Numbered from the stretch's first letter, positions 10,098 to 56,564 are shown. The stretch is DNA of 63,814 nucleotides from Psammoneis japonica (GCA_008632985.1 QPGO01000030.1:1-63814), one strand, 5' to 3'. The notes: a model not told the origin generated them from the letters alone. Numbers and translations are program-made.

Positions 10098-11567
10098 CTA
10101 CCCATCCTTTAGGTAAATGTAAAACATGGGAAATGAATGACCGCCGTTTTCTTTCTGAACACGACCACCACATGTGTTTCCCTTCGTATGAATTTTGCCG
10201 TTTCCACGGGCTCCGGTTTCTCCATAGGCACTGTCGTGTGTAATTAGGGCCACTTGGCTTTCGTGAAGTGCCATCCAATCAATAATGCTTGGAGCCAAGC
10301 TTTCTTGTCCAAACTTTTTGTTCAAGGCATCGCCGCTGTGAGCGCCTTTGAATTCCTTCTTTACGACTTCCTCTGCGCGCCCTTTTGTTTTGACGGTGGA
10401 AGCAAAAGAGTGGACATTTTCCAGCTCATTTACCACGTACTTGGCTACTTCAATGTCATCGGAAATCAACCACCACTTCTTGGTGACACTAATATCCTTT
10501 AGGGACGCAAAACAATCCGCTAGTCCTTTGACAATCTGTTCCTTTGTCACTCCCATCTTGTAGACGTCCTTGTTCAAAATGTTCATGCGCAAGTGAATAG
10601 CCCCATAGGGTGGCAAGGCTTCCAACTCCCTTTTATCGTTCTTCCGCATAGTCTTTTCCTCTTGCAAGACAACAGCACGACGTTCTCGATACAACTCGTG
10701 GGCAAGTCTGGTAGGAACAAACATTAAATTCTGTAAATAGGTCAACATGTGACTTGCCGTACAGCCTCCACCAATGCGCTTGTCCCATTCCCTCGATACG
10801 GACACGTACTCTTTACCGTAGGCATACCACGCATCTCCAAAGTTGGGTGACAAGAGAGTTTTGTGCTTGTTGGACGTGCTCCGCCCATCCCAAAGATCTA
10901 AGTGCCGTTGCACCGACTTGGGATTCGGGGGGTCGGCTCCCCAAATCATGGGCAATACATCATTGTAAACTAGAGTGCCGTTGTGAGTATCCGCAAGAGT
11001 CTCCCATCCATGACTCTTTTCGAGACCATTTGGCATTTGGTAAAGAGCATCAAAGACACTCTCGCCCGATTGTGCGAGAACAACCTGGGCACCCAGCTCC
11101 CAGTCGTACGGCCCAGCCTTTATGAAAGAACGCAAATTGTGGTATTTATCACGTACCATGTCAATTGCACAAGGCCTGTGTAGCAGAGTAGCTAGTAGAC
11201 ACGTCTTGACCCCATGCCCTATAATTCGACCAAATCCTTGACCCCACATAAAGGAGTATTGATACACGGGTGAAGCCATTGCCTCCGGATCGCAGCTCGG
11301 CTCTTCACCGGGAAACCTCTTTCTTTGAAGCCAACAATCATGCTTCTCTAGCGCACTCTGCAGATGTTCTGCACAGACATGATCGTTGCTTTTTTGATTG
11401 TGTCGTTGCACCCTGAAATGTGACTTGGATTCAGGCAGAGAAAGCGGTGCCGGGCAAGGTGTGTTCTCTGTAGTTTGTTGCAACAAACGTATAACATTGA
11501 TGGCAGCGAAACTGAAGACCAAGAATCCGAGACATGATACTGAAGGATAATGGATCGTTCTTGTCAT
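10098..11567 (-). CDS. Type II membrane fucosyltransferase-like glycosyltransferase (paralog B, tandem duplicate)
   Basis: Colinear with 8074-9528 and shares YLQNLMFVPT.LAHELYRERRA, LPPYGAIHLRMNILN.DVYKMGVTKEQIV and KFGQESLAPS.IDWMALHES. Confidence 0.6.
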   Translation of the reverse strand: MTRTIHYPSVSCLGFLVFSFAAINVIRLLQQTTENTPCPAPLSLPESKSHFRVQRHNQKSNDHVCAEHLQSALEKHDCWLQRKRFPGEEPSCDPEAMASPVYQYSFMWGQGFGRIIGHGVKTCLLATLLHRPCAIDMVRDKYHNLRSFIKAGPYDWELGAQVVLAQSGESVFDALYQMPNGLEKSHGWETLADTHNGTLVYNDVLPMIWGADPPNPKSVQRHLDLWDGRSTSNKHKTLLSPNFGDAWYAYGKEYVSVSREWDKRIGGGCTASHMLTYLQNLMFVPTRLAHELYRERRAVVLQEEKTMRKNDKRELEALPPYGAIHLRMNILNKDVYKMGVTKEQIVKGLADCFASLKDISVTKKWWLISDDIEVAKYVVNELENVHSFASTVKTKGRAEEVVKKEFKGAHSGDALNKKFGQESLAPSIIDWMALHESQVALITHDSAYGETGARGNGKIHTKGNTCGGRVQKENGGHSFPMFYIYLKDG

Positions 11568-16159: not shown

Positions 16160-17205
16160 CACACCAGCTTCAGCTCCAGGTGAGGCGCGCATGGGCTCAA
16201 CTCCCACCACTGGCCAATTTTTGCATTTGGCGCAATGAACTTCTTCAAAATCATTTTTTCCTAAATCCAAGGGTGAGTGTGCAAAAACTTTTTTTTTTCA
16301 CACTCACCTTTCCATTTTTGAGACAATCAAATTTGAAGAAGTTCAATGTGCCAAACTGCACGCCAGAAAATTGGCGCCTCTTGTGTGATGGATTGCTCAT
16401 TGTCTGGGACTGGAACAGGCCATGAATGCCATCACATGGAAATGACAAAAGACTCATGATGGGGTTTTGTGCACATGAGGTGCCTGTTCTAGCTCCAGGC
16501 AATGCGCACAGGTTTGATTCCCATCATTTGCCCATTTTTGCATTTGGCACACTGCACTTTTTCAAAATCCGTTTTTTGCCAAATCGAAGGGTGAGTGTGC
16601 ACTTTGCACGTGTTTTTGGGTGCACTGAAGCATGCACGCAGACAAAAGGTCATTTTTGTCACGCCCTTTGTGACATTTAAAGGCTGCAACATGTCGCTGT
16701 GACACATTGACTCTTGTCAGTGGCTGTGTGTTGCACTCCTCCCCATGTGTCACGCGTCCACACGGCTCTTTGCTAACGTGCACTGACACTGCACGGTTTT
16801 GGCGGAACAGTGTGGGTGTGCATGAAGGAGCACACAGAACTGCACAGAGTTTTGCGCGTTCGACAGTGATCAACGTTGCTGCAGACAACTCCCACTCAGG
16901 GTTTCGAACCCCTGGCCTCCTGCCCAATGGTTGCGATGAACCACTCCGCTGTGAATTCACAGTGCAGCATGCATGCAGACAAAAGGTCATTTTTGTCACG
17001 CCCTTTGTGACATTTAAAGGCTGCAACACGTCGCCGTGATGCATCGACTCTTGTTGGCAGCTGTGCATTGCAGCACACTTGCCTTTCAATTTTTGAAACG
17101 ATCAAAATTGAAGAAGTTCAATGCACTGGGCTGTGCAGGAAATCAGCCTCTCTCCTCTCTCGTGATGGAATTCTCATCACCTGGAGCTGGAACAGGCCAT
17201 GAGAT
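16160..17205. repeat. Two diverged ~320-bp tandem, internally palindromic (foldback-like) units; the second is split by the TRIM
   Basis: 16213-16285 resembles 16531-16605. 16299-16360 resembles 17073-17135. gg(g/a)(a/g)ctggaacaggccatga occurs at ~16410 and ~17185. Hairpin ggtgagtgtg...cacactcacc. Confidence 0.6.
16626..17072 (-). mobile_element. TRIM-like non-autonomous LTR retroelement, copy 1, with internal tRNA-like sequence
   Basis: 110-bp direct repeats at 16626-16735 and 16963-17072, TSD GCAC on both sides, PPT complement ctcctcccc at 16736-16744. Confidence 0.9.
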
Positions 17206-17595
17206 GGGCACAGAGCGCAGCAGCTTTTGTCTCTTGCAAACACGAGGTGATTTGACTGTGCATGTGAGACCCCTCTCATCATCAGGAGTTGCTTCTTTGA
17301 AGTCCAAACACATTTGTTTGAGCCGACAATGGCATTGGGTTGCCTGGCAGGCACAGTGGGCCTCAAAGCAACAGGGAGTCACCTCAAATCTGTTGAAAGT
17401 TGAAGCTGTCCCGTCGCGCTCGTGCGCGCAAGCGCGGTGCATCTGATTCCCACTGACGACTCTGGCGAAATGGACATTTTTGCATGCTGCAACACACGTC
17501 CGTTGAAGACATTCATTTGCCCTTTCCTCACATTAAAATGTTCAGCATCACATGTTGCATCTTGAGTTTACGGTCACAACTCAACGGACAACCGA

Positions 17596-17740
17596 CTTTC
17601 AACAAAAAGTTGTTGAAAGTTAGATCTTTCAACAAAAAAGTTGTTGAAAGTCAGATCTTTCAACAAAAATCTGTTGAAAGTTAGATCTTTCAACAAAAAT
17701 CTGTTGAAAGTTGCATCTTTCAACAAAAATCTGTTGAAAG
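17596..17740. repeat. Palindromic minisatellite, 5 x ~30 bp (ctttcaacaaaaa(gt/tc)tgttgaaag + 6-bp linker)
   Basis: Read directly from the sequence. Confidence 0.95.
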
Positions 17741-18770
17741 CCGACATCGTTTTTAGGGTTGCGCTGCAGTCGGGCAACACAAAAGTCAAAGATCGTGACG
17801 AGAACAGCATGAGCGATGCATGCCTTGCCAAAGCCTGAAAGCATGGCGTGAAGTTGGCTCAGCAGCTCAGTGCTGGTTTGGTGGTTTTTAGCAGAAGCAG
17901 TTTGACAATTTATGGCGGCAGTTTCAAAGGTTGTGGCTGCAGCTTCAGAGTGTAAAGCACGGCAGTTTCAGAATTTTCGGCTGCAGCAGTTTCAGAATTG
18001 TCAATTTCTTGAAATCTGCCAGCAGTGGAGCACCTTCAATGGCTCCAAGTGAGCCGCCGTCCAATGTGCTTTGAACCAAGCAAAGCTCCCACCTGGCAGT
18101 GATCTGTCTCCGATCTCACCCAGTGCGTGGTCAGGCGCTGTCTACAGCTCCAAGCGAGAATCATCCCAGTGCCAAACCATTGGCTGCTCCATCCTCTGAG
18201 CCTGGCAATCCCATCTGCCGTTCCGAGTCTGGGTCCCAGCATGCTGCACATTGGGTGGTTTCATCCTCGGATGAAAGTGCCAAGTCATGAGCAACTCCGT
18301 CAGTCACACCGAGGTGTGGACACGGCTCAACACGTCACGTCTCATTGAAATCAACAGAGGACTTAGAAGTGAGAATGTTGGTGACAGCACCACTGAGAAT
18401 CGAGTGGCACTGGCCTGCATGCTTCGTGCGCACTGTCAAAAAAAATTGAAATTGCTTCAAGGTTTCAAACAAAACAGAAATCCACAATTCTCAATGACGC
18501 ACAATGGGACCAACCCAGAAGGATGCATTGTGCAATTGCTCCCAACAATGAAAAAAGAAATGGGGAAAATGGTGCAAGCATCATTGAGATGTCACGCCAT
18601 GAAGTGGACACCGTCTGCTCGCTTCATTGTGCTCGCTGCAGTTTGCTGAGTGTGGCAAAGTGCTGCAGCAAATGCTGCACTCAACGATGAACAAATGTCG
18701 GTCATGCAAACCTGTCTTTGATGACATCGCTTTTCCAATCAGATTTTCATGCCGACAAGTTTTCTGTTGA

Positions 18771-18933
18771 AGTTGTTGAAAGTTACGTCTTTCAACAAAA
18801 AGTTGTTGAAAGTTGCGTCTTTCAACGAAAAGTTGTTGAAAGTTGTGTCTTTCAACAAAAAGTTGTTGAAAGTCACAACTTTCAACAAAAAAGTGTTGAA
18901 AGTTAACGACTTTCAACAAAAAGTTGTTGAAAG
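18771..18933. repeat. Second array of the same palindromic minisatellite (5.5 units, same orientation)
   Basis: ctttcaacaaaaagttgttgaaag units with linkers ttacgt, ttgcgt, ttgtgt, tcacaa and ttaacga. Confidence 0.95.
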
Positions 18934-19634
18934 TTATTTGGCGATAAGCTGCAAAGCTGGAGAAATGAGCTCATTCCTTTGCAGAGTGCAATTGTTCATT
19001 GCACATGTGTGATGGGCAATGGGCTAAATTTTGTACAGTCCAATTCGCCAACAGTGTCGTAATGCGGACATTGCAAAATTTTATAAAGTTATTCAAGAAT
19101 GGATCATTTCAATCTGAGTCGTAGTTTCAACAACTCTGAGGCGACTCCCAGAGGGTGGTGGCAAAAATGAGCGCGTCGCCACCAATCAAGAACAAGCGCG
19201 CTCGACCATCCTTGCCGTATCGCGAAAATTTTGCAGGGGTGAACAAAGTATCAATTTGTCTTCATTTTTGATAGTAAATTTTGTATCGATTTTGAGATCA
19301 GAAAGTATTTTGAAACCTTTCGAAACATTAAGGGCACCAATATGTAAATATGCCAAATTCTCATAAATACCCTTTATCTCAACGGTCTTCTCGAGGTTTG
19401 GCGCGTATTTCAAGTCTATAAAGCAAGCTTCTGACATATTAATAAAGTCTATACAGTAATATTTGTCCTATCGCTGTTGAGCGTTACTTTTGAAAAATTT
19501 AGTCATAGCACTCGCAAATGCGCGGGATTCGCCACGCCGTCGTTGACACTGTATCTATGATACAGTACTCTACGACGACAAGCTACCCAGCCTCCCTCTC
19601 AAATAGAGAACATAGACCATGACCTCCTTTCGTC

Positions 19635-22600
19635 ATGACGAGAGCTAGCTTCAAACCATCTCTCGTCCCCGTCATGTCTGCGGATCGCAAGCGAGAAAAA
19701 CCAGTTTCATGTTCGCTGCAACGTCTTCCCGATGGCGGAAGACAGTACAGTGACCAAGGTGAAGAAGACCAAAGACACTTTCCGGGAGATGTCAATCGGC
19801 GAGACTCGTCAGATAGCGGTTCAGACAGGAAGCGCGTTGATGAGCCGATAGAAAGGGAGCAGAGCGTTGTTGAGAGGCTTTCGATAGAAATGACAGAGGA
19901 AAGTTTTTGTAGCGAGTCGTATGTAGACACAAGACCGCACCATAGGCTAATGGACGAGAGAGGACACTCTGCGGAAGATGTTGTTGAGCTAAGTTACCGA
20001 GAATCGAGAAGTTCTATCAACAAGCGCGTTGATGAGCCGATACAAACGGAGCACATTGATACTGACGGGTTTTCGATAGAGATGACACAAGAAATTTTTT
20101 TTGACGAGCCGTACGAAGTTAGTAGCGAAGTAGTGTCAATTCCAGACGACTGCCCCAGAGACGCCGATGAACTAAATCGTTTTTGGCAGAGGACCGCCAA
20201 GAGCATGGCCAGAAGACCTAAAACCTACTTTTGGTCTGCCTTTCTGGCAGCATTGACGATTGCCTTCGTAGGCCTCTACTTTGGGAATTTTTCAGTTGAG
20301 CCCGACAACAGGGGATGGAATTCACGCGGTACACTTATTGCGGATCGTAACACTCAAGCGTTTTTGGTGGATGTGAACAGGTTTGATCTCTTCACTCGAG
20401 ATGAGGTTGTATGGGATAACTTGATAAACATCGTCCAACCGGGTTGGGAAACGAACGATGATGAAGGATCTCGACGGCTTCTGATCGACAGCGTTAGTCC
20501 TTCTGTGGCGACGTCTTCATGGCTTCAAACGATTGCACCCATGCAGTCTCTCCTTCCAGAACAGCCCAAAGTCGAAGGGCTACCATTTCCCTTGGAAGTG
20601 ACAGACGCGTTGAATCGTCGGCTGCTAAACGCAAGCACGATCAGCCTCTTGGAAGGATGCGACCTTTCCAGGTAGGTAAGCGTGCCCTTTATGTGGGTAC
20701 ACAAGCTGCAGCTTTTCTTTGACCCACCAACAGTGTAACCTTTTATTTTCTCTTGATAGATATGATGCCACTGGCTTGACAAAAGAAGGACGACTGTGGT
20801 CAGTATGGAAGACCCAAAAGTCTTCAGACTCCGCTCTCGACCCCCATCTTCTTAGGGATCTCTGTCTAAGTGAAGAGAAGACGCAAGCACATCTAGAAAG
20901 AGAAAGACTTTGCATTACTTGCAAGGGAGGGGGGTGTCTGCCACCCTATGGACTTGTGTTGTTTGCCCGGCTCACTGTTGCAGACGGTTTCACCATGACC
21001 TGTGATCAGCTAGCAGAAGCATGGCCCGAGTATCAATCATCTACCGAATTGCAAATGGCGAAATGCATTCAGGATTTGAAGCTCTCTTTTGATCCGAACG
21101 CCCCCATTGAGAAATTGCCCGCGTCTTGTCCTTTTGGCTTTTACCCTACTTTGGTTGATAAGCTGTTCGACTCCACCATGCGAGTAGAATATTCCGCCTC
21201 TATTTTTTCAACTATACAAAACCCAGATGCGTTGTTTGAAAAGGTTTCTGGCTATGATAGAGGAACCGAACTTATCAAGGGGGCATATGATACCCGCTAT
21301 GGTAACTTCGCATTTCTACAAACAGAAGTTTCTTTGTACAACGATATGTTGCTTGCTGCTGGGTCGGCCTTGATCACTGCTCTCGCGATTCTGGTGCACA
21401 CGCGTTCACCATTCTTGACGTTGGTAGGACTTCTCCAAATCATTCTCAGCATCCCCACTGCTTATTTTTTCTATGTTTTTGTTGCACGATTGGAGTTCTT
21501 CCCGGTTCTGAACTATATTGGGATCTTTGTGGTTTTCGCCCTTGGAGCTGACGATGTCTTCGTCGCGGTAGACAAGTGGAAGAATGCTCGTCTGGCACAT
21601 TGGGACAAGTCGACGGAATATGTTGCGGCAAAGGCCCTTCCAGACGCGGCTGGGGCCATGTTTCTCACAACCCTTACTACTGCTGTGGTGAGTACCGCAC
21701 TGAAGCCGGTAATGTGTCTTTTTTCTGTTCTTTTTGCTCTAAGTTTCTCATTGTTGCGAACTCCTACCGGTACCTGCAGGCCTTCTTTGGAACAGCGGTC
21801 TGCCCCGTTGCTCCAGTTCTCTGTTTTGCGGTGTATTGTGGAATTTTGGTTATCATGGATTACGTGTTATGCCTTGTGCTGGTATTCCCAGCTCTATGTA
21901 TATGCGATGAGAAAAAAGATGTACGAAACATTTGTTTCAATTGCCACGTCTGCCGCCAGCTTGAAGCGAAAGGCCCGCATGGAGAAGAAGACGATGAGAG
22001 ACCAAGTTTGATTCGCCGCATTTTGCTTGTGTTTTACAAGTTCATTCATCGATTCCGTTGGATTTTGTTGGCAGGGTGCTTGGCCGGATTCGGAGTTTCC
22101 GCTTATTTCGCTTCGAAATTAGGGTTCCCTGAATCGTCTGATGTCCGATTGTTACGTCCGGAAACTTTTCAATACGAGCTTAACTACGAGTGGCGCTTCA
22201 ATCTGCTCTTCGACGTCTTTCTCAGACAAAGCGGCAGTCAAACCTACCTCCTCTTTGGCACAAAAGCTGCTGACACTGGGAATCACCTCGACCCCAGAAC
22301 CTTGTCGCAGCTTGTCTTGGATGAAACGTTTGATCCGTCTGGTGAAGAGGTGCAAATCTATCTGCGTGGATTTTGTGACGATTTGTTCGCACAGGACTTT
22401 GCCGAGAAGCCTAACCCGGATTATGTCTGTCCCATGAATGCCTTTGATGCTTGGTTACAGCAGCAGTCCCAACTGGACCTTCCGGACGATGATTACCTTG
22501 AATTTTGTGGTGGAGCGACGGGACTACCGGTCAGACAAAGCAACTTCAACGCTTGCATGATAGCTTGGAGTCAACAAAGCTGGTTTAAGCCCATACTTGC

Positions 22601-23544
22601 GCGCGGCGACGTAGTAGAGATTATGTATGTGGAATTCAACAGCAAGGTTCGCTATGACAGTCCATACGAAGATATCAAGAGAGAGTGGCTTTTGACCGAG
22701 AAGTGGATGAAAAATCAGGCAAAAAACGTGGCCCCAGAAGGAATAGGCGAATTCTATACGTCATCTTTTGCTTTTTGGTGGTATGACACCAATAACGAAA
22801 TGTTGAGCACCACCTACGTTGCAGCTGCGATTGCTCTGGTTACGGCGGGCGTTGTCATTTTGTTCTCTTCCCATTCAGTGACACTGACTTTGTTCGCTGT
22901 GTTTACCATTGGGTTTATTCTGGCTGCTACAACGGCGTGCCTTGTCGGCCTCGGGTGGTCGCTTGGATTGTAAGTTGTTTGTGTCTGTCTTCCATTGTTT
23001 GTATGATTCGACTGACTTTTCTGAATTTTTTGTCTGGAATAGCGTGGAATCCATTTGTTTTGCCATTTTGATTGGCATAAGTTGTGACTTTGTCATTCAC
23101 TTTGCCCATGCCTACGCCACTCTCCCGGGTATGCACTCCCGCGATGAACGTACCAAACACGCATTGATTCTCATGGGCCCATCCATTCTTGCAGCAGCAT
23201 TCACAACGATTGCAGCAGCAATCATCATGCTTTTCACCGTGATAACGTTCTTTGAAAAGTTTGCCTCCATATTGTTTTTAACTGTTTTGCTTGCTACCGT
23301 GGGATCCTTTGTTGTTTTCTTGACCTTGGCCGACAGCATTGGCCCGACCCATCCAACCTTTTTGGTAGACCTAATGATGAACAAGTTCAGTCGACGCTGT
23401 AAAGGTTGCAGAACGAAGTCGTCCTTCTCAGCTGCAACCACTGAAGACAGCTCCTCTTCACAAGAAGACGACGACGCAAGTCAGTGCACTATTGAGAATA
23501 GGGTGAATCCGCAAATTAGAATACAGAATGAGTTGTACCGGTAA
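19635..23544 (+). CDS. Patched/Dispatched-like sterol-sensing-domain (RND) membrane protein, paralog 1; introns 20672-20759, 21688-21779, 22970-23042
   Basis: GIFVVFALGADDVFVAVDKWK (GxxDD), AGAMFLTTLTTAVAFF and ILIGISCDFVIHFAHAY (GxxxD). Three GT-AG introns give a continuous frame. Confidence 0.88.
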
Positions 23545-39100: not shown

Positions 39101-40714
39101 CATGATGCAACAAATGCAGTGTCATCTTGTCAGAGTGACACAGACCCCACTTCCCATCAGCTGTTGAGATCCAACGTGCCACCATTGGCCAAGATTCTGA
39201 ACAGTTTGTTGCTGTTGCAACTGTTGCAATCCCAAGACAAAATGAGCTTGTGCAGCGGGTTTATTTGGGTGGGTGCCAGCTCCAGGTGCTGCCCAGTCAG
39301 TGACTCTTTTTCGTTTTTGTGCTTAAAATGGTGGTCTGGAAATGCAGGAGCACCATCCTGGGCTTTGGACAGCCACAGGGTCAGAGAACTCACAGGAAGC
39401 AGTGCTGCACTGTGCTTTGGCTGCTGCACACCTGTCAAAGTGTCCAACACAAGGCCTTTGCCGCAAAGGGCCACTCCAGGAAGCCCTTGTGGAAAGTGCA
39501 ATGAGGCAGGAGGCCTTCAATGCAGGGGTGCTTGAGGTTCTTGTGACTTTGTCTTGAATTCCTTTGGAGTGCCTTGTCTGCAAATGTCAAAGAATGTTCC
39601 TTGAGCTGCGTCTTGGCAAAGCCCCCCTCAGCATTGTGCCTTGAGCAAGCCAAGGCATGGCCCTGGAAAGCCCTTGTCAATCTCTGCTGCACACTTTGTG
39701 CGAGCCCACATTTTGGCTTCATGAATCTGAAAGCAAGACATTCTCAATGCTGATTTCATCCATGTGAATTTCACCTCAAGGCCATGATGTTCTGTGGGAT
39801 GCTATGGGGCAGCTTCAAATGTCCATGGGTGGCTCTTTTGGTGCTCTGCCAGTGTGAACACAGAGAGCAATCTTTAGCTGGGCTACTTTTGACAGCTTCC
39901 AAACACAAGTGCTTGGGTTTTCTTCTTTGGCTGCAAATCTTGAAATTCCCACTCTGTGTGATGTCATGCAAGTCCTCAACAGCAGCAGGACAGCTCTCTT
40001 TTGGTCATCCCATCACAACAAATGACAGCACGGCTGAGCACTTTCTCCAAGATGATGCTGACAAACACCAGACTGCCAGCCTCAGCCAGTCTGGAACAAA
40101 TCATGTCATCATTCTTGGCCAGACAGGTGCCCAATGCAAGGGCATCATTGTTTGACTGGACACATGGACAAGTGTGCCATTGTTGTCAGTGGTGCAGACA
40201 AGCTCATTGGCAGAGTTCTTTTTGACTTGGAACATGAGGTTGGGCACACACAGGTTGCCATCCAGACACTCTGGATTTGTCCAAGTCACCCAAGCTGTTC
40301 ACTAAATTCTCAATGTGCATGACCACATTTAGCTGCCACATGGCCAGCCACCAGCCAACCTTCCAAGAAAGTGCTGACAACAGCCCCAACCATTTCTGGC
40401 AAAGCAGGTGCCAAGGATGCAATCACCGCAGCATTGTGCATCATCAGCACCGCCCTTGTGTCGTTGTTGGCAGCCGGCACTTGACTTGACTTCCTCACAT
40501 CTTTGAAGTGTTTTGGCTGGTTGTTGAGCTTGCTGTCTCACTCTCCAGGGGGCACTGGTGTGCAAAAGCGCCAGGTGCAAAAGCTGAGGAGCATGAAAAT
40601 GAAAAAGAGGATTGGATTTGCAGCCATTGTCCTTGCACAGTTTCCACCACAACAAGAAGATGAGCACCAACAAGCTTTGGTGCACAACGGGCATTGTCTT
40701 GTTCCCTGGCAATG

Positions 40715-41154
40715 TGCAACACACAGCCACTGACAAGAGCCAATGCATCACGGCGACGTGTTGCAGCCTTTAAATGTCACAAAGGGCGTGACAAAAATGA
40801 CCTTTTGTCTGCATGCATGCTGCACTGTGAATTCACAGCGGAGTGGTTCATCTCGCAACCATTGGGCAGGAGGCCAGGGGTTCGAAACCCTGAGTGGGAG
40901 TTGTCTGCAGCAACGTTGATCACTGTCGAACGCGTAAAACTCTGTGCAGTTCTGTGTGTTCCTTCGCACGCACCCACACTGTTCCGGCAAAACCGTGCAG
41001 TGTCAGCACACGTGAGCGTGGGTCGCGTGATGCATGGGGAGGAGTGCAACACACAGCTGCCAACAAGAGTCAATGCATCACGGCGACGTGTTGCAGCCTT
41101 TAAATGTCACAAAGGGCATGACAAAAATGACCTTTTGTCTGCACGCATGCTGCA
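40715..41154 (+). mobile_element. TRIM-like non-autonomous LTR retroelement, copy 2
   Basis: 110-bp LTRs at 40715-40824 and 41045-41154 (TG...CA), TSD AATG on both sides, PPT ggggaggag directly before the 3' LTR. Confidence 0.92.
40830..40900 (+). ncRNA. tRNA-like (Pol III type-2 promoter) sequence inside the TRIM; homolog at ~16890-16957 on the minus strand
   Basis: A-box-like agcggagtggtt and B-box ggttcgaaacc within a caggg/ccctg T-arm stem. The anticodon arm is not convincing. Confidence 0.6.
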
Positions 41155-42882
41155 AATGCCCTTTTCTTCGCTGTTGTTGCCTCTTTGATTGCCCCCAGCA
41201 ACAAGGAACAACAGCACACTGGTGCTGAGGGCAACCACACTGTGGCCAGGCCATGTGTGAGGAAAAAGGCCAGCTGCCCATGCTGCGTGTCCACTGCAGG
41301 ATTCCACAGAATCTCGTGAAAGCCACAGAAGCTGTTGCGCCCCCCCCCCACTTGTGTGTTGCTCTCTAACCCCCTTCAATGTGCCCTGTGTGCCAGAACA
41401 AAATCTGAGCTCCTTTCTCAGCAGGCAGTGGATTCTGCGTGCCTGTGTGTGGGATGCTGAGCAGCTTTCTTGAGAGCCATCAAAGGGTGCTAAGGATGGA
41501 GGGTGGTGGCTGTCAAACAAGAGCATGGAGTTGTCAGATGCCCTGGTGCATGCTTGTCAATGTGAGGAGCAGTGGCCTCATGGTTGCCGCCTCCCTGGGA
41601 TGACAACCAGCTTGCCTGTTGCATCTGCTGAGGTCATCTGCCAAGAGTGCTTCAATGTTGTGATGCACCCCACACAGCAAAACAGCGCTCATTTTGCAAG
41701 TCTTGTCAAAGGCATGGGATACATGGCAGAGTCCAGGAAAAGAGCTGTGAGATTGAGCCTCACCTTTCTGATGATCACCATCTCACTCTTGCCCACCCCC
41801 AAAAAACAGCAAGCTGTCTCCAACCAAAATTTGAGAAAAAGGCAGAGGGTCGTGCACAGAACAGCCTGTTGAACTTTCAGAACATGGCATTGTTGCAACA
41901 CTTGCAAAACCCAGTTGTGTCATCAGAAGCATGTCAAGCTCAACATGATTGAGTGTGTCAACAACCTGCGCACTGCCTGTTTTTTGCCGCACAGACAGCT
42001 GCTCTCTGCGCTGGTGTGTGCGCTCGGTCTCATCCAAAGAAAGTGTGTGCTTCACTTGTTCTCCACAAGCACAATGCATCTTGGAATGTGGCCAGTGTGA
42101 GATTGCATCCAGCCCCAAAAATCTTTGCTCTTGTTGCTCTGTGCACAGCTCTGCTGCTCCTGGCACACCTGGCTGGCACAAAAAGGGCAGATGTGCAGCA
42201 CTGCTGCAGCCTGGCTCCTGCCGCTGGCAGAGCAAGCTCAGCTGCAAGCAACACTTTGTGCTTGATGTGCACAGACAGCAACGTGCTTGGTCTGCACAGC
42301 AGCGATGCACTTGGTCTCCAACTGCAATGGTTGACAACCACCAAAGTCAAGGCCATTGGAGGGACCAACATTTTGGAGTGCTTGTGTGCAGGAACGTGCT
42401 CGCACACGAGAGTTTTGTGCTAAGCTGTCGGGATGTCATTATATATTCTTATATATATATTTTATTCTAACATCGGTTGGCGCCACATTGAGTACACAAA
42501 GAAGGATACTGAATAGTGACATATTGTGAAAAGATACCAAATCTCGATTTATAACCTAAAGATACTCATAGAGCATTAGCAAGCACAACCGTTACGGTAC
42601 ATACACATACGGTATATTTTTTGGAAATTTGCTCTTGCGCCACGAAAGAGAGGATCGTGAAAATGCATATACACATATAAAAATATGTATAGAGTCAAAT
42701 AACCCACGATTGGCGACGCATTGCGAAGAATCATCATCATACCGGTAGAAGGAGGACCTCCTAACATCAACAGGACACGCCACACCTCATCGTCCTACCG
42801 GTACCTATCGTTATCGTTGCTGTTTAGTTTTGTGTGATCGTAGGTATTGTAACAGGGAACATAACGGGGAGTATAAGGCACC

Positions 42883-45800
42883 ATGACGACAAAGAAATCA
42901 AAGTCATCAATCGTCGCTGATAGTGAGTCTTTTGATCGTGTTTTCGAAAAACCAGTTTCTTCATTGCTACAATGCTTTCCAAGCGCCGGATTACAGTACA
43001 TACGCTAAAGGAATTTGGGGAACGAAAGCAAAGGCTGGAATCATCAAAGAACGACAGCAGCTGCAAGAGCATGGCTTTGCCAATAGAACGGGAACAGAGC
43101 ATTGTAGAGGGGTTTGATGTAGAAATGACGGAAGAGAGCTTTTTCAACGAGCGGTTTGAGGCTAGTAGAAGAAGCGGAATGCAGATTGAAGAAGACCGGA
43201 GCTGGGACGACGAGTTTGCAATAGAAATGAGAGACGAAAGTGTGTGTGACGAAGCTAGTATGAGAGATGAACCAGTGCCTGAAATACTGTTGCAACGAAA
43301 GGTATGAAGGCCGAGGACGAGGATGAACTGCATGGCTTCTGGCAGAGGCAGGCCAAGGCAATGGCAAGGAGACCCAGAACCTACTTTTGGTCGGCGCTTC
43401 TTGGCGCCGTGACCATTGGGGTTGTGGGCATGGTCTTTGGGGAATTTTCAGTTGAGCCCGACAATGCTGGATGGACATCACGTGGAACAACTATTGCGGA
43501 TCGTACCTCTCAAGTGTTTTTAGTTCGTGGAAATCGAGGGAAGCTATTTTCTCGAGACGAGGATGCATGGGACGACTTGATAAACAACGTCCAACCAGGT
43601 TGGGAGACATCAGGATTCGACGACTCATCACCTGACGATGACCGCAGATTTCTGATGGATAGTAGCATTGATTCGCCTCTATTATCGCCGCGTTTCGGGG
43701 ATGAAGGGTTTGGGCCAGAGTCAACACTGCTCACCAATACATTCAGAGAAAAACAGCTGGTGCTTCCGTTCGAAATGACAGACGAGATGAAGCGTCGGTT
43801 GCAAGATGCGAGTTTTTCCAATTTGCTGGAAGGATGCGACCTAAATTGGTGAGATGGGCTCTACTGATGAGTAATGTACTGGCAAGCTCTCCCTCCTACG
43901 GTTGACCCTCTCACTGACATGTTGATTTTTTTGACAGGTATGACGCCTCCAACGCGACACAAGAGAATTATTTATGGTCAATGTGGAAGACCCAAAAGTC
44001 TTCAGATACTGCTCTGGACCCCATGCTTCTCAGGGATATCTGTTTTACCGAAGAGAAGACACAGGCTCATTTAGTGAAAGAGGGTCTCTGCATCACTTGC
44101 GACGGGGGTGGTTGTTTGCCTCCTTATGGACTGGTATTTTTCGCCAGGCTTTCTGTACCAAATGGTTTTAGCATGAGCTGCAGTGAGCTTTCCGAAGCAT
44201 GGGCCGAGTATCAATCACCTATTGAAACGCAATTAGCGACATGCGTTGAGGATGTAAAACACGCGTTCGATCCCGACGCGGCCCCGGAGAGTTTGCCTGC
44301 GTCTTGTCCTTTTGGCTTTTACCCTTCCTTGGTAGATGAGTTGTATGACTCCACCGTGCGAGTTGCATATTCTGCTTCTGTCTTTGCAACTGTAGATGAC
44401 CCAGTTGCTTTGTTTGAAAAGGTTTCTGGCTATGACCGGGGTACCGAACTTATCAAAGGTGCATATGATACCAACTTCGAAGATTTCGTGAACCAGCAAA
44501 TCGAGCTTTCTCTCTACAGTGACATGTTACTGGCGATTGGATCTGGAGTGGTGACCTCCCTTGCGATTTTGGTACACACCCGTTCACCCTACTTGACGTT
44601 GATTGGACTTCTCCAAATCCTCTTAAGCGTCCCCATCGCCTACTTTGTCTACGTGTTTATTGCACAGCTGGATTTCTTCCCTGTTCTCAACTTCATTGGT
44701 GTCTTTGTGGTTTTCGCCCTTGGAGCTGACGATGTCTTTGTCGCGGTAGACAAGTGGAAGAATGCTCGTCTCGAACACTGGGACAAGTCGACGGAATATA
44801 TTGCGGCGAAGGCCCTTCCAGACGCTGCTGGGGCCATGTTTCTCACAACCCTTACTACTGCTGTGGTAAGTACCGCACTGGAGCCGGTACTGTGTCTTTT
44901 CCTGTTCGGTTTGTATCTTGTCTTTTTGCTCGAAGTTTCTCATCGTTGCGAACTACTACCTGTGCGTAGGCCTTCTTTGGAACAGCCGTCTGTCCCGTTG
45001 CTCCAGTTCTCTGTTTTGCGGTGTATTGTGGACTTTTGATTATCTTTGACTACCTCTTATGTATTTTGCTGGTGTTTCCGGCTCTATGTATATACGATGA
45101 GAAAAAAGATGTACGAAACATTTGTTTCAATTGCCACGTCTGCCGCCAGCTTGAAGCGAAAGGCCCGCATGGAGAAGAAGACGATGAGAAACCAAGTTTG
45201 ATTCGACGCATTCTGCTTGTGCTTTACAATTTCATTCATCGTTTCCGCTGGGTCATGATGGTGATTATCTTGGCCGGATTCGGAGTTTCTACTTACTATG
45301 CTACCAAACTTGGCTTGCCCGAAACGTCTGATGTCCGGTTGTTGAGCGCGGACGACTTTCAGTACGAACTTCACTATGAGTGGCGCTTCAACTTGCTCTA
45401 CGAAGTTTTGGCCAGACAGGCGGGTAGTTCGACGTCTGTTGTTTTTGGATCTAAACCGGCTGACACGGGGGATCATCTTAACCCCTACACCTTTTCACAA
45501 CTCGTCCTGGACGAGACGTTTGATCCGTCGAATGAAGACGTTCAAGTCTATCTGCAAGGATTTTGCGACGATTTGTTCGCTCAAGACTTTGCCGAGAAGA
45601 CTGACCCTGACTATGTCTGTGCCATGAACCAGTTTGATGCTTGGTTGCAGGAACAATCCCAACTGGACCTTCCGGACGAGGCTTACACTGAATTTTGTGG
45701 TGAAGCGACGGGTTTACCTGTTCGACAAAGCAACTTTGATGCTTGTATCATTGGCTGGAGCGAACAATTCAGGTTCAAGCCCATTCTTGCACGTGGCGAC

Positions 45801-46721
45801 GTCGTGAAGATCATATATGTGCAATTCAATAGCAGGATTCGCTTTGACAGTCCACACGACATTATTGATAAAGAATGGAATTTAATAGAAAATTGGATGA
45901 AGAATCAGGCGGACAACGTGGCCCCAAAAGAAGTTGGCGATTTCTACTTTTCATCCGTTGATTTCTGGTGGTATGACACCAATGGACAGATGCTAAGCAC
46001 AACCTACGTTGCAGCTGCAATTGCTCTGGTTACGGCGGGCATTGTTATTCTGTTCTCATCCCATTCGGTGACGCTGACGTTGTTCGCAGTGTTTACCATT
46101 GGGTTTATTCTGGTTGCTACAACGGCGTGCCTTGTCGGCCTCGGGTGGTCACTTGGATTGTAAGTTGTTTCCCAGTAGTCGTTTGTTTTCTTTTTTGAGT
46201 TAATGCTGTAACGCGTTGTGACTGACTTTTTCGCTCTTGTCTATTCTTTAAGTTTGGAGGCGATTTGTTTTGCCATTTTGATTGGCATAAGTTGTGACTT
46301 TGTCATTCACTTTGCTCATGCCTACGCCGCTCTCCCGGGAATGCACTCCCGCGACGAACGTACCAAACACGCATTGATTCTCATGGGCCCGTCCATTCTT
46401 GCTGCAGCATTCACAACGATTGCTGCGGCAATCATTATGCTTTTCACCGTGATTACGTTCTTTGAAAAGTTTGCCTATATACTCTTTTTCACGGTTGTGC
46501 TCTCAACCGTGGGAGCCTTTATTGTTTTCATAACCTTGACCGACTGCATTGGCCCGACCCATCCAACCTTTTTGGTAGACTTGATGGTCAGCAAGTGCAG
46601 AAAATGCCGTAAGAATTGCAAAAAGAAGAAAGAAACAGCTGCTGCCTTTAAGGAAATGTCAGAAGACGAGTCAACGTCGGAGGACGAAAAAGAAGAAGAG
46701 GGAAGTCTTGCTGAGATATAG
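42883..46721 (+). CDS. Patched/Dispatched-like SSD protein, paralog 2 (two frameshifts in exon 1 at ~43000 and ~43300)
   Basis: Colinear with 19635-23544, same three intron positions, same GADD and GISCD motifs. MTTKKSK...EKPVSSLLQ aligns to MTRASFK...EKPVSCSLQ. Confidence 0.85.
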
Positions 46722-47119: not shown

Positions 47120-47570
47120 CTAACGAGAGAACAGCTTACCCCTCCCTGTCTACTTCTCTCTAGCTTCTCTACTACGACTACGGTAGGTACTTCTAGCTAC
47201 TACTAGTGAGAGGAGAGGAGAGGGAGACACCTACTGTAGGGCCCTACTCTAGCTAGAGTAGGGCCATGCCGGTGCCATACACGGTATCATAGGATTACCC
47301 TACGTCATGAATACCGGCACTCTAGACTCTAGGGCCCTACTCTAGAGTAGAGCTAGAGAGAACAGCTTACCCCTCGCTATCTACTTCTCTCTTAAGGCCA
47401 TACTCTAGTAGTAGCTAGCTAGATAGCAGAGCTCTCTAGCTTCTACTCTCTCTAGAGTAGTAGCTACTGCTCTCTCTACTTCGAGAGGTAATCTCTCTCT
47501 ACAGTACTTCTCTACAGTACATACTCTAGGTACCGGTGCCGATAGAGGGTAGAGACCTTAGGCGGGTACA
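47120..47570. repeat. TA/AG/CT-rich island with an internal ~35-bp direct repeat
   Basis: gagaacagcttacccctc.ct.tctacttctctc at ~47126 and ~47357. ctag, gggccc and taccggt words. Lies 5' of the TPR gene. Confidence 0.8.
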
Positions 47571-48221: not shown

Positions 48222-50321
48222 ATGGGTGTCTTTAATCAACAACAAAACACAAACGCTACAAGCTCTAAATTCCGTCGCCGTTCCAACTGGGCAGCACAAC
48301 GAGCCCCGCCAAACGAGCATTCACTTCAACGTCAACATCAACTCCCTCTGCGTCGATTGTCGAACTGAACAACCGCGCTGTCTCACTGTATAACAAGGGG
48401 ACTTTTCTAATGCCTCGACCCTGTTTCAAGAAGCCGCCAAGATTGTTCCCGCACGCTGGTCAACATGGTAAGCAGCACTACTTCTGCTGTTGCTCATGGC
48501 AATCCCCTCGTGAACCCCCCTCCTTCAAGTTATATTTATCAACGCCTCGACTTTGACGAGGGCATGCATCTCTACACGGAACCACAAGAAGTCAACTTTA
48601 GCGACACACCCCAAGCCATTGCGGCCGTCCTACTCTTTAATGCCGGACAAGCCCGTCGACAAATGCAAGACTACGAGGGAGCCTTTGCGTGTTATGAACG
48701 TTCGCTCGCCATGCTTGCAACGACTCCCCGTCATGTGGTGATGATTCCCATTTTACACAATCTCGGACAGCTCCGCTATCGTCTAGGCAATCTTCAAGAA
48801 GCCATAGCCGCATACACGGCAGCCTTGGAGCATTGCAAGGCGTTTTACGGAGAATCGCATATTTCTGTGGCTGTCACGTTGAATTGTTTGGGAGTCTTGT
48901 ACTATCACTTGTCGGGAGAAGAGTCGGTCCGATCTATGAAGCACTTTCGTGCGGCACTTGATATTCAGTTGCAACTCTTGGGATCGGACCACGAGGCGGT
49001 GGCTACGACGCTCAACAATATGGGCCGAGTCCATGTGCAGCGGGATGAATTTGATGATGCGCTTGTCTACTACGAGGAAGCGCTTCGCGTCCGCCGCGAC
49101 CGGCTGGGACCCGACAGCATTGATTACGCCGCCACGGCCTTTAATGCCGGACAGAGCTTGCATCAAAAGGGTAACTACGACCGTGCCATTGAGCTGTACC
49201 GAGAGTTTCTCGTGTGGCGCGCATCAAGTTCTCCAAGAACCACCGGGACATTGCCGTGGTGTTGAGTGGGATTGCGCAGATTCATCAAGAGCGCAAAGAG
49301 TTTGCCGAGGCATTGACGCTCTACGAAGAGTCACTTCAAGTGGGAAAGGCGGCGCTCGGAGAGTATCATTCCGAAGTGGCCATGTTGTTGAATCGCATCG
49401 GCAACTTTCACTTTGAACGTGAAAACCTGATGCGGCGCTTCAGGCCTACCAGGACGGACTTCGCATCGAACAAAAGGTGTTGGAGCCAACGCATCCCAAC
49501 ATCATTGTGACCTTGTCGAATATTGGTGAGATTTATCGACAACGCAGTGAGTTTGATCCCGCCATTCGTCTCTACACGGAAGCGTTGGAGTTGCAGAAAC
49601 GCCGCTGTGGCCCGACCCACGCCGACGTCGCAAGCACGCTCAATGCCATTGGTCTCATTCACGACCAGAAAGGCAATGCCAATGTCGCGGTCAAGTATTT
49701 GCAAGAAGCCTTGCTCATGAGACGGACCGTCCTAGGCGATGAACACTTGGATGTGTCTGCGACCCTCACGTATTTGGGTACCATTTTGTATCGGAAAAAC
49801 ATGGTGTCCACGGCCATGCAGCTCTTTACCGAGTCGTTGCGGATCCGCCAAGACAAGCTCGGACGAGACCATCGCGATGTGGCCTTTACGCTTTACAATT
49901 GTGGTCTCTGCCATCAATTGCAAGGCAGCTACGAAGAGGCGATTGAATGCTACAGAGAAACGCTGCGCGTGGAAAAGCTGGTTTTGGGTAGTGATCACCG
50001 CGATGTCAGCATGACTCTGTACAAACTAGGTGAAGCATACAAGGCACACGGCGATCTACAAGAGGCCTTGACGAGTTTCCAAGAAGCCCTACGCATTGAG
50101 CGCAACACTCTTGGAAGGGAGGATCCCGCAACCGTTGCGCGGACGCTCAATGAGATTGGAAACATCCACCTTGCTCGGGGAGATGTCATTCCCATGATGG
50201 ATGCTTCAATGAAGCGGCTAGAATATTCCGCAGCGCGGGGCTGAGTCCCAACAGCCTTGCCGTTTCGGGACAGCTGTACGCTTTTGATATCTCTTGTCCT
50301 TCTGCAGCGCCTGCCGCATGA
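48222..50321 (+). CDS. Tetratricopeptide-repeat protein (kinesin-light-chain/nephrocystin-3-like TPRs), several frameshifts
   Basis: Repeated ~42-aa units (HISVAVTLNCLG, HEAVATTLNNMG, HPNIIVTLSNIG, HADVASTLNAIG, HRDVAFTLYNCG) continue across frames and end ...CPSAAPAA*. Start position is uncertain. Confidence 0.8.
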
Positions 50322-54663: not shown

Positions 54664-56564
54664 ATGAGCGCTCAAGGTGCTGGATTCTCAAACGGCGGCG
54701 GCGCCAAAAAGGCCGTCCATGTCAAGGTGAGTCGAACCAAATTGTGAAGCAAGTGACATATGACCCGGTCTTCAGTCTTCTGACATGGGGAGCTTCGGTC
54801 ACTCTCGAAAGGGTGTTCAAAGCAAGCAGAGACCGAAATACACTTGTTTTTCGGCGATCTACACATTTTCCAGTACATTTTGTACGGGAGAGGCTTTGTG
54901 CCAATGTTTTCATCCGTGACTTTTTTGCCGCAATGATGTGCCTTCCACTACTCGTATGCGTTGAAAAGTCAATTCGTCATATCATTATATTCGTCTTCGT
55001 AGCTTTTCATTTTCATTTATTTAGCATTGAACAAAAGGAAATGACTTTGTATACTTATTCATCAATGACTATGTGATATATATTCGCAGATATTTCGTCT
55101 GAATTTGAGCTCACAATTTTTCCTCGTTCAAACTTCCGTGCACGTGCAAAACAGTGGGCTGGAAAAACCATTGCCCTTGGAACATTTCCGGCCGCCGAAG
55201 CCGATGAAAAATGTGCTCGAGCCAAGGCTTTGACACGAGCGTGGCGCTCCACAATGCGCCCCAAACCAAGCCGCGAGTGGGTCATGTTGGAGCTTGAGAG
55301 ATTAAACGTGCGAGTTGTGAGTGGCAGGCTTGGTCGTAAGGGAGGCGACGACGAAGATGAGGAAGGTGAATCGTCTGCCAAGAAAAAAATGAACCAAGAC
55401 CCGCGACTTGCGGCGGCTGAAGCCGCAGTGCGTCGCGACTCCCTCCTGTCAGGTCGTCGGGATTCCCTTACTGGACTACGCCGTGACTCCATCACGGCTT
55501 CGTTGCTATCAGCAGCTGATATCGCCCGAGGAACTGGTGCTGACCGGAATAGTATTGGCTGGAATCAGGCGGATATCGATAGTATGATGCAGCGCCGGAA
55601 CTCTTCTCTTGGGCTCTCTTTTCTGGGAGATGGGCTGGATGACGCGAAGCGTCGTAGTTCGCTCGGCGCGTCAGGTCTAGACGCATCGATGCCTCCTCAT
55701 CGTCCTCTAGTTGGTGGTGGGGCTGCTGCAGCTTATGAGGCGGCACGCGCTGACCATTACGCAAGCATGTCACAGAAAGGAGGAGGTGAAGGACAGGCTC
55801 GCCGTGCCTCAGGTCTCGGATTGGGTAGCCTCGGCGGTGGCAGCAGCATGCCGCAGATGGGACTTTCTGTCAATCCGAATCAGCATTACGAAATGCTCAA
55901 GCTTCATCACATGAACCTTCTTAACGAGATTCAGGAGACGACGCTCATGATGAACCTCTACCAGCAGCAGCAGTTGCAACAGCAGCAACAGCAGCTGCAA
56001 AACGCTGGCGGGGAAGGTACGGGATCTGGAGGACTCGGAAGTGGATCCAGTAGCGATCCGCAGATGGCGCTCCTGCTTCAGCAACAGCAGCAGCAGTCTA
56101 GTGGAGGAGGAGGACTTGATGTTGGCAGTGGCGGTGGCTTGGGCGGAATGGGTCTCGGTGGCGCGGCCTCCGGAGCTTCCAACCAAATGCAGGCGCTTCT
56201 GCGTCAGCAGCAAATGCTTCAATCCGGTGGCGGCTTGGACAGTAGCATGCAGCCGCGCAGGCTGAGTAGCATGCAGCAACAGCAGCAACAACAGCTAATG
56301 GCAGGCGTCAAAGAACAGGAGGAACTCCAAGAACGTCTCGCAAAGCTGAAGGAAGATATCGCGAAGAGACAGAAAGAAGCTGAAGAGCTTGAAGCCGCTG
56401 GAGCAAAAGGGTCAGAATCTGGATCAAAGAGGAAGGCCAAACAGGATGAAGACGATAGCCCGAAAAAGAGGGCAAGACTGATGAAGACGAGAATGACGAC
56501 AAGAGCGATAGCGAGGGAGCCGAAAGCGAGAACGAAGAGACAGCCGTCTAAAGCATTTGGCTGA
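54664..56564 (+). CDS. Putative transcription factor: AP2-like N-terminal motif, RRxS repeats, poly-Q/G, coiled coil; exon 1 54664-54726, exon 2 from 55155
   Basis: Predicted splice gives KAVHVK|WAGKTIALGTFPAAEADEKCARAKAL (AP2-like 'K.I.LGTF'). Contains RRDS x3, RRNS, RRSS, RRAS and RRLS. A frameshift near 56470 would give an acidic tail ending at 56551. Confidence 0.6.

Follow-up and report, generated by a model that had tools for sequence, protein, structure and literature searches.

The window, by which the whole analysed stretch of 63,814 nucleotides of Psammoneis japonica DNA is meant, encodes gamma-tubulin complex, MAD1, Es2, PPR, Patched-SSD and TPR proteins, a set that marks it as nuclear DNA of a eukaryote. 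Look-ups in a protein atlas agreed with a eukaryote and offered no more than a weak lead to diatoms: 14 of 30 hits fell in clusters of unnamed proteins, with no Pfam family in common, the best of which is commonest in Bacillariophyta. The window also carries a 440-bp element (copy A) in which two 110-bp LTRs flank a 220-bp non-coding internal domain (Table 1). Direct reading of 40400-41500, together with a repeat finder, located all features of this copy at the coordinates claimed beforehand in the first-pass annotation, and the LTRs, the TSD AATG, the polypurine tract (PPT), the palindrome, and the box A–like and box B motifs were each present as described there. The repeat finder delimited the LTR pair as a 111-nt repeat with 94% identity. 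The same annotation had stated that a TGG-type primer-binding site (PBS) is missing, and direct reading of the sequence after the 5' LTR indeed revealed no TGG.

Table 1. Positions of the features of the two element copies, counted from the first letter of the window
Feature	Position	Strand	Basis or remark
Left TSD AATG, copy A	40711-40714	+	same 4 nt again at 41155-41158
5' LTR, copy A, 110 bp, TG..CA	40715-40824	+	direct repeat, 94% identical to 41044-41154
TTTAAAT, TATA-like, possible Pol II promoter element	40769-40775	+	invariant in all 4 window LTRs
TTTT run, 5' LTR (counterpart 41133-41136 in 3' LTR)	40803-40806	+	sequence reading
Perfect 14-nt palindrome CTGTGAATTCACAG, at the expected PBS position	40825-40838	+	repeat finder, sequence reading
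Box A-like AGCGGAGTGG	40837-40846	+	within D-arm-like stem-loop 40837-40856; motif scan
Box B GGTTCGAAACC	40879-40889	+	inside T-arm-like hairpin 40875-40892
Remaining non-coding internal domain	40893-41035	+	hypervariable at about 41013-41032 (copy A/B alignment; contig variants and indels)
Polypurine tract GGGGAGGAG, adjoining the 3' LTR	41036-41044	+	sequence; identical in copy B
3' LTR, copy A	41045-41154	+	repeat finder, sequence
Right TSD AATG, copy A	41155-41158	+	sequence
Copy B	16626-17072	-	90% identity over 449 nt to copy A (BLAST of parts against the window; alignment)
5' LTR, copy B	16963-17072	-	alignment
Internal domain, copy B	16736-16962	-	alignment
3' LTR, copy B	16626-16735	-	alignment
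Palindrome, copy B	16949-16962	-	alignment
Box A, copy B	16941-16950	-	alignment
Box B, copy B	16900-16910	-	alignment
TSD GCAC, copy B	16622-16625 and 17073-17076		given for the + strand; GTGC in element orientation

Several details of copy A bear on how the element could be transcribed and copied. The box A–like motif AGCGGAGTGG shares two bases with the palindrome, and box B, GGTTCGAAACC, begins 33 nt beyond AGCGGAGTGG. In the D-arm-like stem GCGG (40838-40841) pairs with TCGC (40853-40856), and the T-arm-like hairpin comprises 5 bp (40875-40879 with 40888-40892). On the sense strand of the element, runs of four T residues occur only within the LTRs, at LTR position 89-92, and the first such run downstream of box B is that of the 3' LTR. 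The opposite orientation of the element was considered and dropped, as the other strand holds neither a fitting purine tract nor a PBS-like site. A stop-free frame spans the element; it differs between copies A and B owing to a 2-nt indel, and it was rejected as a gene because of this shift. Stop-free frames are frequent in this TA-poor genome.

The second copy in the window (copy B) lies 24 kb from copy A in the opposite orientation and is 447 bp long, with an internal domain of 227 nt and LTRs that are likewise of the TG..CA type. The TSDs of the two copies differ (AATG for copy A, GTGC for copy B), so that each of the two has a 4-bp TSD of its own, and both have the complete LTR-internal-LTR structure and a PPT. 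Copy B is inserted in another repeat. A paralogous unit of this host repeat (16172-16428) runs uninterrupted across the insertion point and thus serves as the empty site. No reverse transcriptase or integrase domain, and no autonomous Gypsy-like partner, was found among the 26 ORFs scanned for domains in the 63.8-kb window.

Repetition was gauged by setting the contigs of one public sample against 40600-41270 (671 nt) at 80% likeness; the window may itself have been assembled from this sample, in which case the contig depth is not independent support. In run X1, 1200 contig pieces matched the 671-nt stretch. The summed word depth, which is not a copy number but shows very high repetition, was 1.2e4-2.9e5 inside the element compared to 31-36 in its flanks. 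The LTR core (40761-40806) was approximately 2-3 times deeper in contigs than the internal domain, and the loose contig ends at both inner LTR borders were heterogeneous (agreement 0.46-0.52), which fits solo LTRs better than a single abundant partner with the same LTR. Within the internal domain, depth was 4.0e4-7.7e4 over the palindrome and tRNA-like part and about 1e5-1.3e5 over the part that follows, a difference that hints at many relatives differing in exactly the former part. One contig joins 40647 to 41183 with undefined content between them, and was not read as an empty allele. Scans of metagenomes with patterns from the box B region and the LTR core gave no match, nor did scans of viral contigs for the element. 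A protein-based scan of prokaryote genomes brought up no relative.

Collectively, these observations bore out the assignment of the first-pass annotation, which had called the locus a TRIM-type retroelement and had named copy number and TSDs among the means to check it: the LTRs, the PPT and the individual 4-bp TSDs recur in the second window copy, and the contigs attest to a highly repeated family. The element is a genuine TRIM-type non-autonomous LTR retrotransposon.

The copies are also old. The 5' and 3' LTRs of copy A differ at 7 positions, all of them transitions in CG/TG/CA context, and among the four LTRs of the window 49 of the 52 pairwise differences are transitions and every variable column lies in such a context. 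Variants among the family contigs occur as TG/CA pairs. By these patterns the copies have decayed mainly through CpG deamination; the dinucleotide ratios of the window are 0.43 for TA, 0.72 for CG and 1.33-1.35 for CA/TG. A 7-nt block that appears swapped between LTRs of copies A and B was rejected as a trace of recombination, since two CpGs that decayed alternatively to TG or to CA explain it.

The first-pass annotation had further placed a tRNA-like Pol III promoter in the internal domain, rather than in the LTRs. Boxes A and B do lie there and at a tRNA-like spacing: with the register set by box A, 40836 corresponds to tRNA position 8 and 40879 to position 52, a distance of 43 nt compared to the canonical 44. 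Both boxes are identical in the two copies, and no variant within them reaches at least 10% of the family contig depth. The consensus of box B has two matches in the 63.8-kb window, one in each copy of this TRIM family, with 0.32 matches expected. Relaxed box A has 8 matches with 4.26 expected and is therefore weak on its own. On combining both figures, the authors' own estimate puts a same-strand box A–like motif lying 25-55 nt upstream of a box B at about 3e-4 expected occurrences per window.

Dedicated searches did not recover a tRNA. ARAGORN called none at the element with default settings or at thresholds of 95, 90 and 80%, and no tRNA gene anywhere in the window; its calls at 70% and 60% were regarded as noise, being overlapping, mutually inconsistent and different between the copies. 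Rfam (E <= 10, on 1301, 151 and 75 nt) returned no tRNA, ribozyme or other credible family, a null result that also rules out a retrozyme-like hammerhead. For a test with a single model, 59 bacterial tRNAs and a cloverleaf supplied by hand were turned into a covariance model. Run over the whole window with filters off, the model placed copy B fourth of 22 hits at 10.2 bits (E = 1.2). Three unrelated stretches scored higher (14.9, 11.7 and 11.1 bits), and the score of copy B is not significant across the whole window. When the search was limited to the 227-nt internal domain of copy B, the same 10.2 bits corresponded to E = 0.004.

The alignment of copy B with this model covers positions 9-65 and includes a 4-bp D stem, a D loop with GG, an AGG-C variable region and the T arm, with 13 nt in place of the 17-nt anticodon arm. 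In copy A the model scored the T loop only (7.5 bits sense, 2.7 bits antisense); this copy contains an extra TC at 40851-40852, which is missing from copy B and from about one third of the family contig depth. The model score rests largely on the motifs that had prompted the search and is not independent evidence. The tRNA-like stretch folds with ordinary energy (z = -0.43 and -0.49), and the fold of a 337-nt putative RNA carries no energy signal.

Thus the segment resembles a tRNA only in part: D arm, variable region and T arm are present and spaced as in a tRNA, and an acceptor stem, an anticodon stem and a cloverleaf were not found. The approximately 55 nt that follow the palindrome look like these three parts of a tRNA and no longer fold or score as one. 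Statistical support for tRNA descent is modest and partly circular; judged from the sequence, the segment probably descends, as a relic, from a tRNA or from the head of a tRNA-derived SINE. Its variable and T-arm part resembles eukaryotic glycine tRNAs, a likeness that we presume and take as a lead only. Identity as a tRNA gene was rejected, given that ARAGORN and Rfam found no cloverleaf and that our own model aligns the D arm, variable region and T arm only. Read-through of the primer tRNA, which would leave an antisense tRNA beside the LTR, was rejected as well: the D-arm-like part is in sense orientation, and some 50 nt separate the T arm from the LTR, not 11.

A plainer account of the same segment would be that the element is an ordinary TRIM, in which boxes A and B and the hairpin arose by chance or belong to an unrecognised structured leader. 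The palindrome would then be the PBS for a fragment of a host tRNA, internal or truncated, as in the half-tRNA priming of the Copia type. The negative tRNA finders and the window-wide model score, which lies within the noise, agree with this account. So do the commonness of relaxed box A and that of perfect 14-nt palindromes, of which the window contains 15 compared to 4.05 expected under a first-order Markov model. Against it, the 4-bp TSD suits Gypsy-like and not Copia-like partners by the pattern described in PMC10886601. A box B accompanied by a box A–like motif some 43 nt upstream in the same orientation is expected only about 3e-4 times per window, and the pairing of the D stem and the match in the variable region add to the evidence of the boxes. 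We consider this account unlikely.

In a type-2 Pol III promoter, transcription starts about 10-20 nt upstream of box A. Such a start would fall where the 5' LTR ends (40824) or beyond it, and the only T4 run of that LTR lies upstream of it, so that a Pol III RNA would contain neither R nor U5. Without R-U5, canonical strand transfer would be unable to rebuild two LTRs. An RNA of about 310 nt is conceivable, as no sense T4 run intervenes between box B and the 3' LTR, and it would hold neither U5 nor a terminal repeat. On this geometry, Pol III-driven replication is unlikely. The proposal of the first-pass annotation that the element is transcribed by Pol III and mobilised in that form is thus mechanistically improbable, since an RNA from the internal promoter would not regenerate the LTRs. 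A transcript that runs from LTR to LTR under an LTR promoter would be a simpler source of the replicative RNA.

These considerations bear directly on the possibility that the element is a hybrid of SINE and TRIM, in which an internal tRNA-derived type-2 promoter recruits Pol III and the Pol III RNA becomes the template for the reverse transcriptase of an autonomous partner. Such an element would be a relative of the TRIMp3 group with its promoter shifted from the LTR to the internal domain. The boxes match their consensus at tRNA spacing and are conserved between the copies, and at 440 bp the element is no longer or shorter than TRIMp3 elements are stated to be (PMC10886601). However, in Cassandra as described there, the Pol III promoter is in the LTR, and its RNA extends from the 5' LTR into the 3' LTR and acquires an 18-bp terminal duplication (PMC10886601). 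The present arrangement would yield no terminal duplication of this kind, and yet the LTRs are complete in both copies, and no cloverleaf was found. Taken together, the hybrid appears quite improbable as the source of these copies.

The primer of reverse transcription must anneal directly after U5. By this rule the palindrome, perhaps minus a 2-nt spacer, would be the initiation site. The palindrome itself is not rare; what is distinctive is that in both copies it directly adjoins the LTR. Its hairpin has an energy of -8.3 kcal/mol (z = -2.7). The canonical 3' end of a tRNA was rejected as the primer, given that in most of the family the palindrome opens with T-T-G rather than T-G-G. In 75% of the family contig depth position 40825 is T instead of C, with a U-G pair to the palindrome's last base still possible. 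In a minor variant, read from the loose-end consensus of 2 contigs at 40853, positions 3 and 12 of the palindrome change together with pairing kept. The change 40827 G>A is present at 12% of the depth, and its partner change at 40836 is not among the variants at the 10% threshold. The paired change of the third and twelfth positions is suggestive, yet CpG decay mirrored within a single master copy would account for it as well.

In a canonical PBS, TGG and one further base precede a stretch complementary to the 3' acceptor strand. Counted in the box A register, tRNA position 1 is 40829, exactly 4 nt past the LTR, where the sequence identical to the 5' acceptor strand would begin in a canonical PBS. 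This single coincidence suggests that a tRNA body joined an old PBS through acceptor-stem homology, as such a junction would be expected to produce this register.

The palindrome and the tRNA-like body may also be read together as a priming module, in which two element RNAs, or an element RNA and a partner RNA, would pair through the palindrome and a cut in one strand would create the 3'-OH primer. This would be a trans version of self-priming of the Tf1 type, with the tRNA-like elbow recruiting a reverse transcriptase that binds primer tRNAs. The position of the palindrome at U5, where a primer has to anneal, the pairing kept in the commonest variant and in the 2-contig variant, and the register of tRNA position 1 at the start of the acceptor-complement part of a canonical PBS are all consistent with this idea. 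The palindromic PBS substitute of GalEa provides a precedent (PMC5445492), and the palindrome and hairpin sites described at the PBS position in PMC5445492 and PMC6934838 render self-priming somewhat more plausible. Self-priming, which the first-pass annotation had offered as an option, or dimer-priming is possible. Several points weaken the module as a whole: the covariation comes from 2 contigs and has the alternative of CpG decay noted above, the partner change at 40836 is absent at the 10% threshold, and the mechanism itself is unprecedented. Self-priming in cis of the Tf1 type was rejected, as it needs an LTR sequence complementary to the site, and inspection of the LTR revealed no complementary stretch of more than 6 nt. 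Such a module is at best a long shot.

An account of origin may be attached to it. Here the family would have abandoned tRNA priming altogether: homology in the acceptor stem would have let the old PBS recombine with a tRNA of the same kind as the primer, or with an RNA derived from such a tRNA, possibly between co-packaged RNAs during minus-strand synthesis. The outcome would be a self-complementary initiation site joined to a tRNA body, in register and flush with U5. Dimer pairing of the palindrome and a cut would then prime reverse transcription, and the tRNA-like elbow would be a handle for the reverse transcriptase of the partner. We regard this sequence of events as highly speculative. 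If it is true, the family would be the second independent palindromic PBS substitute after that of fungal GalEa, and the first hint of how such substitutes arise and work.

The reading that we prefer, with a probability of about 55%, is that the locus is one copy of an old and highly repeated TRIM family that is mobilised in trans, with an RNA that runs from LTR to LTR, a non-canonical palindromic site and a relic of a tRNA or SINE. First, an autonomous LTR element would supply reverse transcriptase and integrase in trans; the 4-bp TSD points to a Gypsy-like partner, by analogy with the pattern reported in PMC10886601. Second, the RNA that is reverse transcribed would run from LTR to LTR, and the internal boxes are probably not its source; a promoter for Pol II within the LTR, where the TATA-like TTTAAAT lies, probably is. 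Third, the palindrome may be a non-canonical site of initiation or dimerisation, comparable to the conserved hairpin site of fungal GalEa. Fourth, the tRNA-like segment would be a captured tRNA or the relic of a SINE head, which may still bind Pol III factors and would not be the maker of the replicative RNA. In this reading the promoter used by Pol II, the limits of R, the primer and the partner are all inferred.

Compared to known TRIMs, as defined in PMC10886601 and PMC6934838, this family has in common a length of <1 kb, LTRs of about 100-250 bp and the lack of coding capacity for reverse transcriptase and integrase. The PPT before the 3' LTR, the short TSD, the high copy number and the presumed mobilisation in trans are shared with the TRIMs described there as well. 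The difference is at the PBS, where a 14-nt palindrome and a sense tRNA-like segment appear to replace the site complementary to a tRNA 3' end of those descriptions. The closest comparison is with Helenus, Ajax and Cassandra, the TRIMp3 elements of Kojima 2024 (PMC10886601), which are likewise non-autonomous LTR elements of similar size with a piece that goes back to the gene of a small RNA. By the account given there, conserved boxes A and B without a functional tRNA fold are common to TRIMp3 and the present family, and animal Helenus shares the 4-bp TSD (PMC10886601). In TRIMp3 as described, however, the RNA-gene piece lies inside the LTRs and the Pol III RNA is terminally redundant (PMC10886601), whereas here the piece is in the internal domain after the 5' LTR. 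The first-pass annotation had placed the RNA-gene part of published tRNA-like TRIMs inside the LTRs, and the description of Helenus in PMC10886601 agrees. The defining trait of TRIMp3 is the RNA-gene piece in the LTR, and box B occurs in none of the 4 LTRs of the window. The PBSs of Helenus are described as recognisable (PMC10886601), and none is recognisable here.

The palindrome at the PBS position resembles, by analogy, sites in two other groups of elements. The GalEa elements of fungi are Copia elements that have no PBS; a palindrome of 9-10 nt lies directly against their 5' LTR, the two commonest variants of this palindrome differ at paired positions, and its describers were unable to propose a mechanism (PMC5445492). 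With the conserved hairpin site of GalEa, as described in PMC5445492, the present family has in common a palindrome that adjoins the 5' LTR where a PBS is expected, present in both copies, and variants in which paired positions change together (here in 2 contigs). On the other hand, GalEa is an autonomous Copia element with a 5-bp TSD, compared to 4 bp here, and its palindrome is 9-10 nt long and includes the last A of the LTR, compared to 14 nt here (PMC5445492). GalEa is also described as having a second 9-mer, complementary and located 12-41 bp downstream, in which an A/A mismatch is fixed (PMC5445492); it has no clear equivalent in this family. A weak complement to the palindrome, a bulged 9-bp pairing 6 nt downstream, appears in the fold of copy A only (z = -0.43).

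The second group comprises TRIMs of bivalves, which are described as having no canonical PBS and as carrying palindromes or inverted repeats and short segments similar to tRNAs in the inner domain (PMC6934838). Compared by description, they share with the present family an inner domain without a PBS in which palindromes and tRNA similarity occur together (PMC6934838). The passages on these elements make no mention of boxes A and B at tRNA spacing (PMC6934838), which are present here, and a relationship in sequence between the two is not expected. For diatoms, none of the papers listed by literature searches on TRIMs describes such an element in its title or abstract, and a term search of a paper on Phaeodactylum retrotransposons yielded no mention of TRIMs, tRNAs or a primer-binding site, its single 'PBS' being a wash buffer.

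This family shares with tRNA-derived SINEs (SINE2) the build of a short, non-coding mobile element whose 5' side holds a tRNA-related head with boxes A and B. SINE2 elements lack LTRs, end in a LINE-type 3' tail and have TSDs of variable length, which come from target-primed reverse transcription. The LTRs, the PPT and the fixed 4-bp TSD set it apart from them, as does the lack of a LINE-type tail or A-rich end. LTRs, PPT and fixed TSD together indicate insertion by an integrase, and identity as a SINE2 was rejected on these three features.

To our knowledge, TRIMs with pieces of Pol III promoters have been named only recently, and all those described carry the piece in the LTR. Compared to these, the family is an unusual TRIM, with a tRNA-related box A/B segment in the internal domain and no canonical PBS, and it is neither a TRIMp3 element, a tRNA gene nor a SINE. 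Copies of this kind can confuse the annotation of tRNAs and SINEs. A piece in the internal domain that is fused to a palindrome at the PBS position widens the picture of TRIMs with Pol III pieces, and the family would be a further case, this time in a microbial eukaryote, among the few LTR elements without a tRNA-complementary PBS, alongside fungal GalEa and the bivalve TRIMs.

The home-made tRNA model, a covariance model built from 59 bacterial tRNAs with the cloverleaf given by hand, gave its three best window scores at sites that all fall within stop-free frames, two of the three with Pfam domains. These matches were taken as noise, and their scores define the background level of the model. 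Because stop codons are rare in the window, 154 stop-free frames of 110 amino acids or more are present, many of them within non-coding DNA.

Perfect 14-nt palindromes, the kind that lies flush with the 5′ LTR of the TRIM (a 440-bp miniature LTR retrotransposon), number 15 in the window versus 4.05 expected under a first-order Markov model, which is nearly four times as many. One of them, CTACTCTAGAGTAG, is found twice; these two sites and a related palindrome may belong to a different repeat family, as its ends or its hairpins.

The TRIM copy at 40715-41154(+) lies between two paralogous Patched/sterol-sensing-domain genes that are 23 kb apart; the stretch that they flank and that contains this copy, at about 26 to 43 kb in the window, is poor in genes and rich in repeats. 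The other TRIM copy, at 16626-17072(-), is inserted in the second unit of a further repeat family, which consists of tandem units of about 320 bp each. In addition, a repeat of about 30 nt forms two arrays separated by about 1.1 kb, with weaker matches in inverted orientation as well as direct ones, and the stop-free frames of these arrays yield reiterated peptide-like strings.

Features of the window, with positions and scores or likeness
Feature	Position	Detail
tRNA-model match	20596-20686(-)	14.9 bits
tRNA-model match	49378-49451(+)	11.7 bits
tRNA-model match	55355-55445(-)	11.1 bits
Perfect 14-nt palindromes	47246, 47337, 53964, and 11 other sites	repeated palindrome at 47337 and 53964; related one at 47246
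Patched/sterol-sensing-domain paralogues	20160-23418 vs 43316-46628	DNA identity 74-80%
Fucosyltransferase-like genes, tandem pair	8104-9225 vs 10122-11276	69% identical
About 320-bp tandem family	16172-16601 and 17074-17202	
Parts of its units	16172-16283 vs 16491-16601	80% identity
Parts of its units	16299-16425 vs 17074-17202	73% identity
Arrays of the repeat of about 30 nt	17593-17743 vs 18770-18936	direct, 85-90%; inverted, about 73-75%

Dinucleotide bias is strong over the whole window (TA 0.43, CG 0.72, CA 1.35, and TG 1.33). The differences among its repeats are almost exclusively CpG-type transitions, which suggests cytosine methylation of these repeats.
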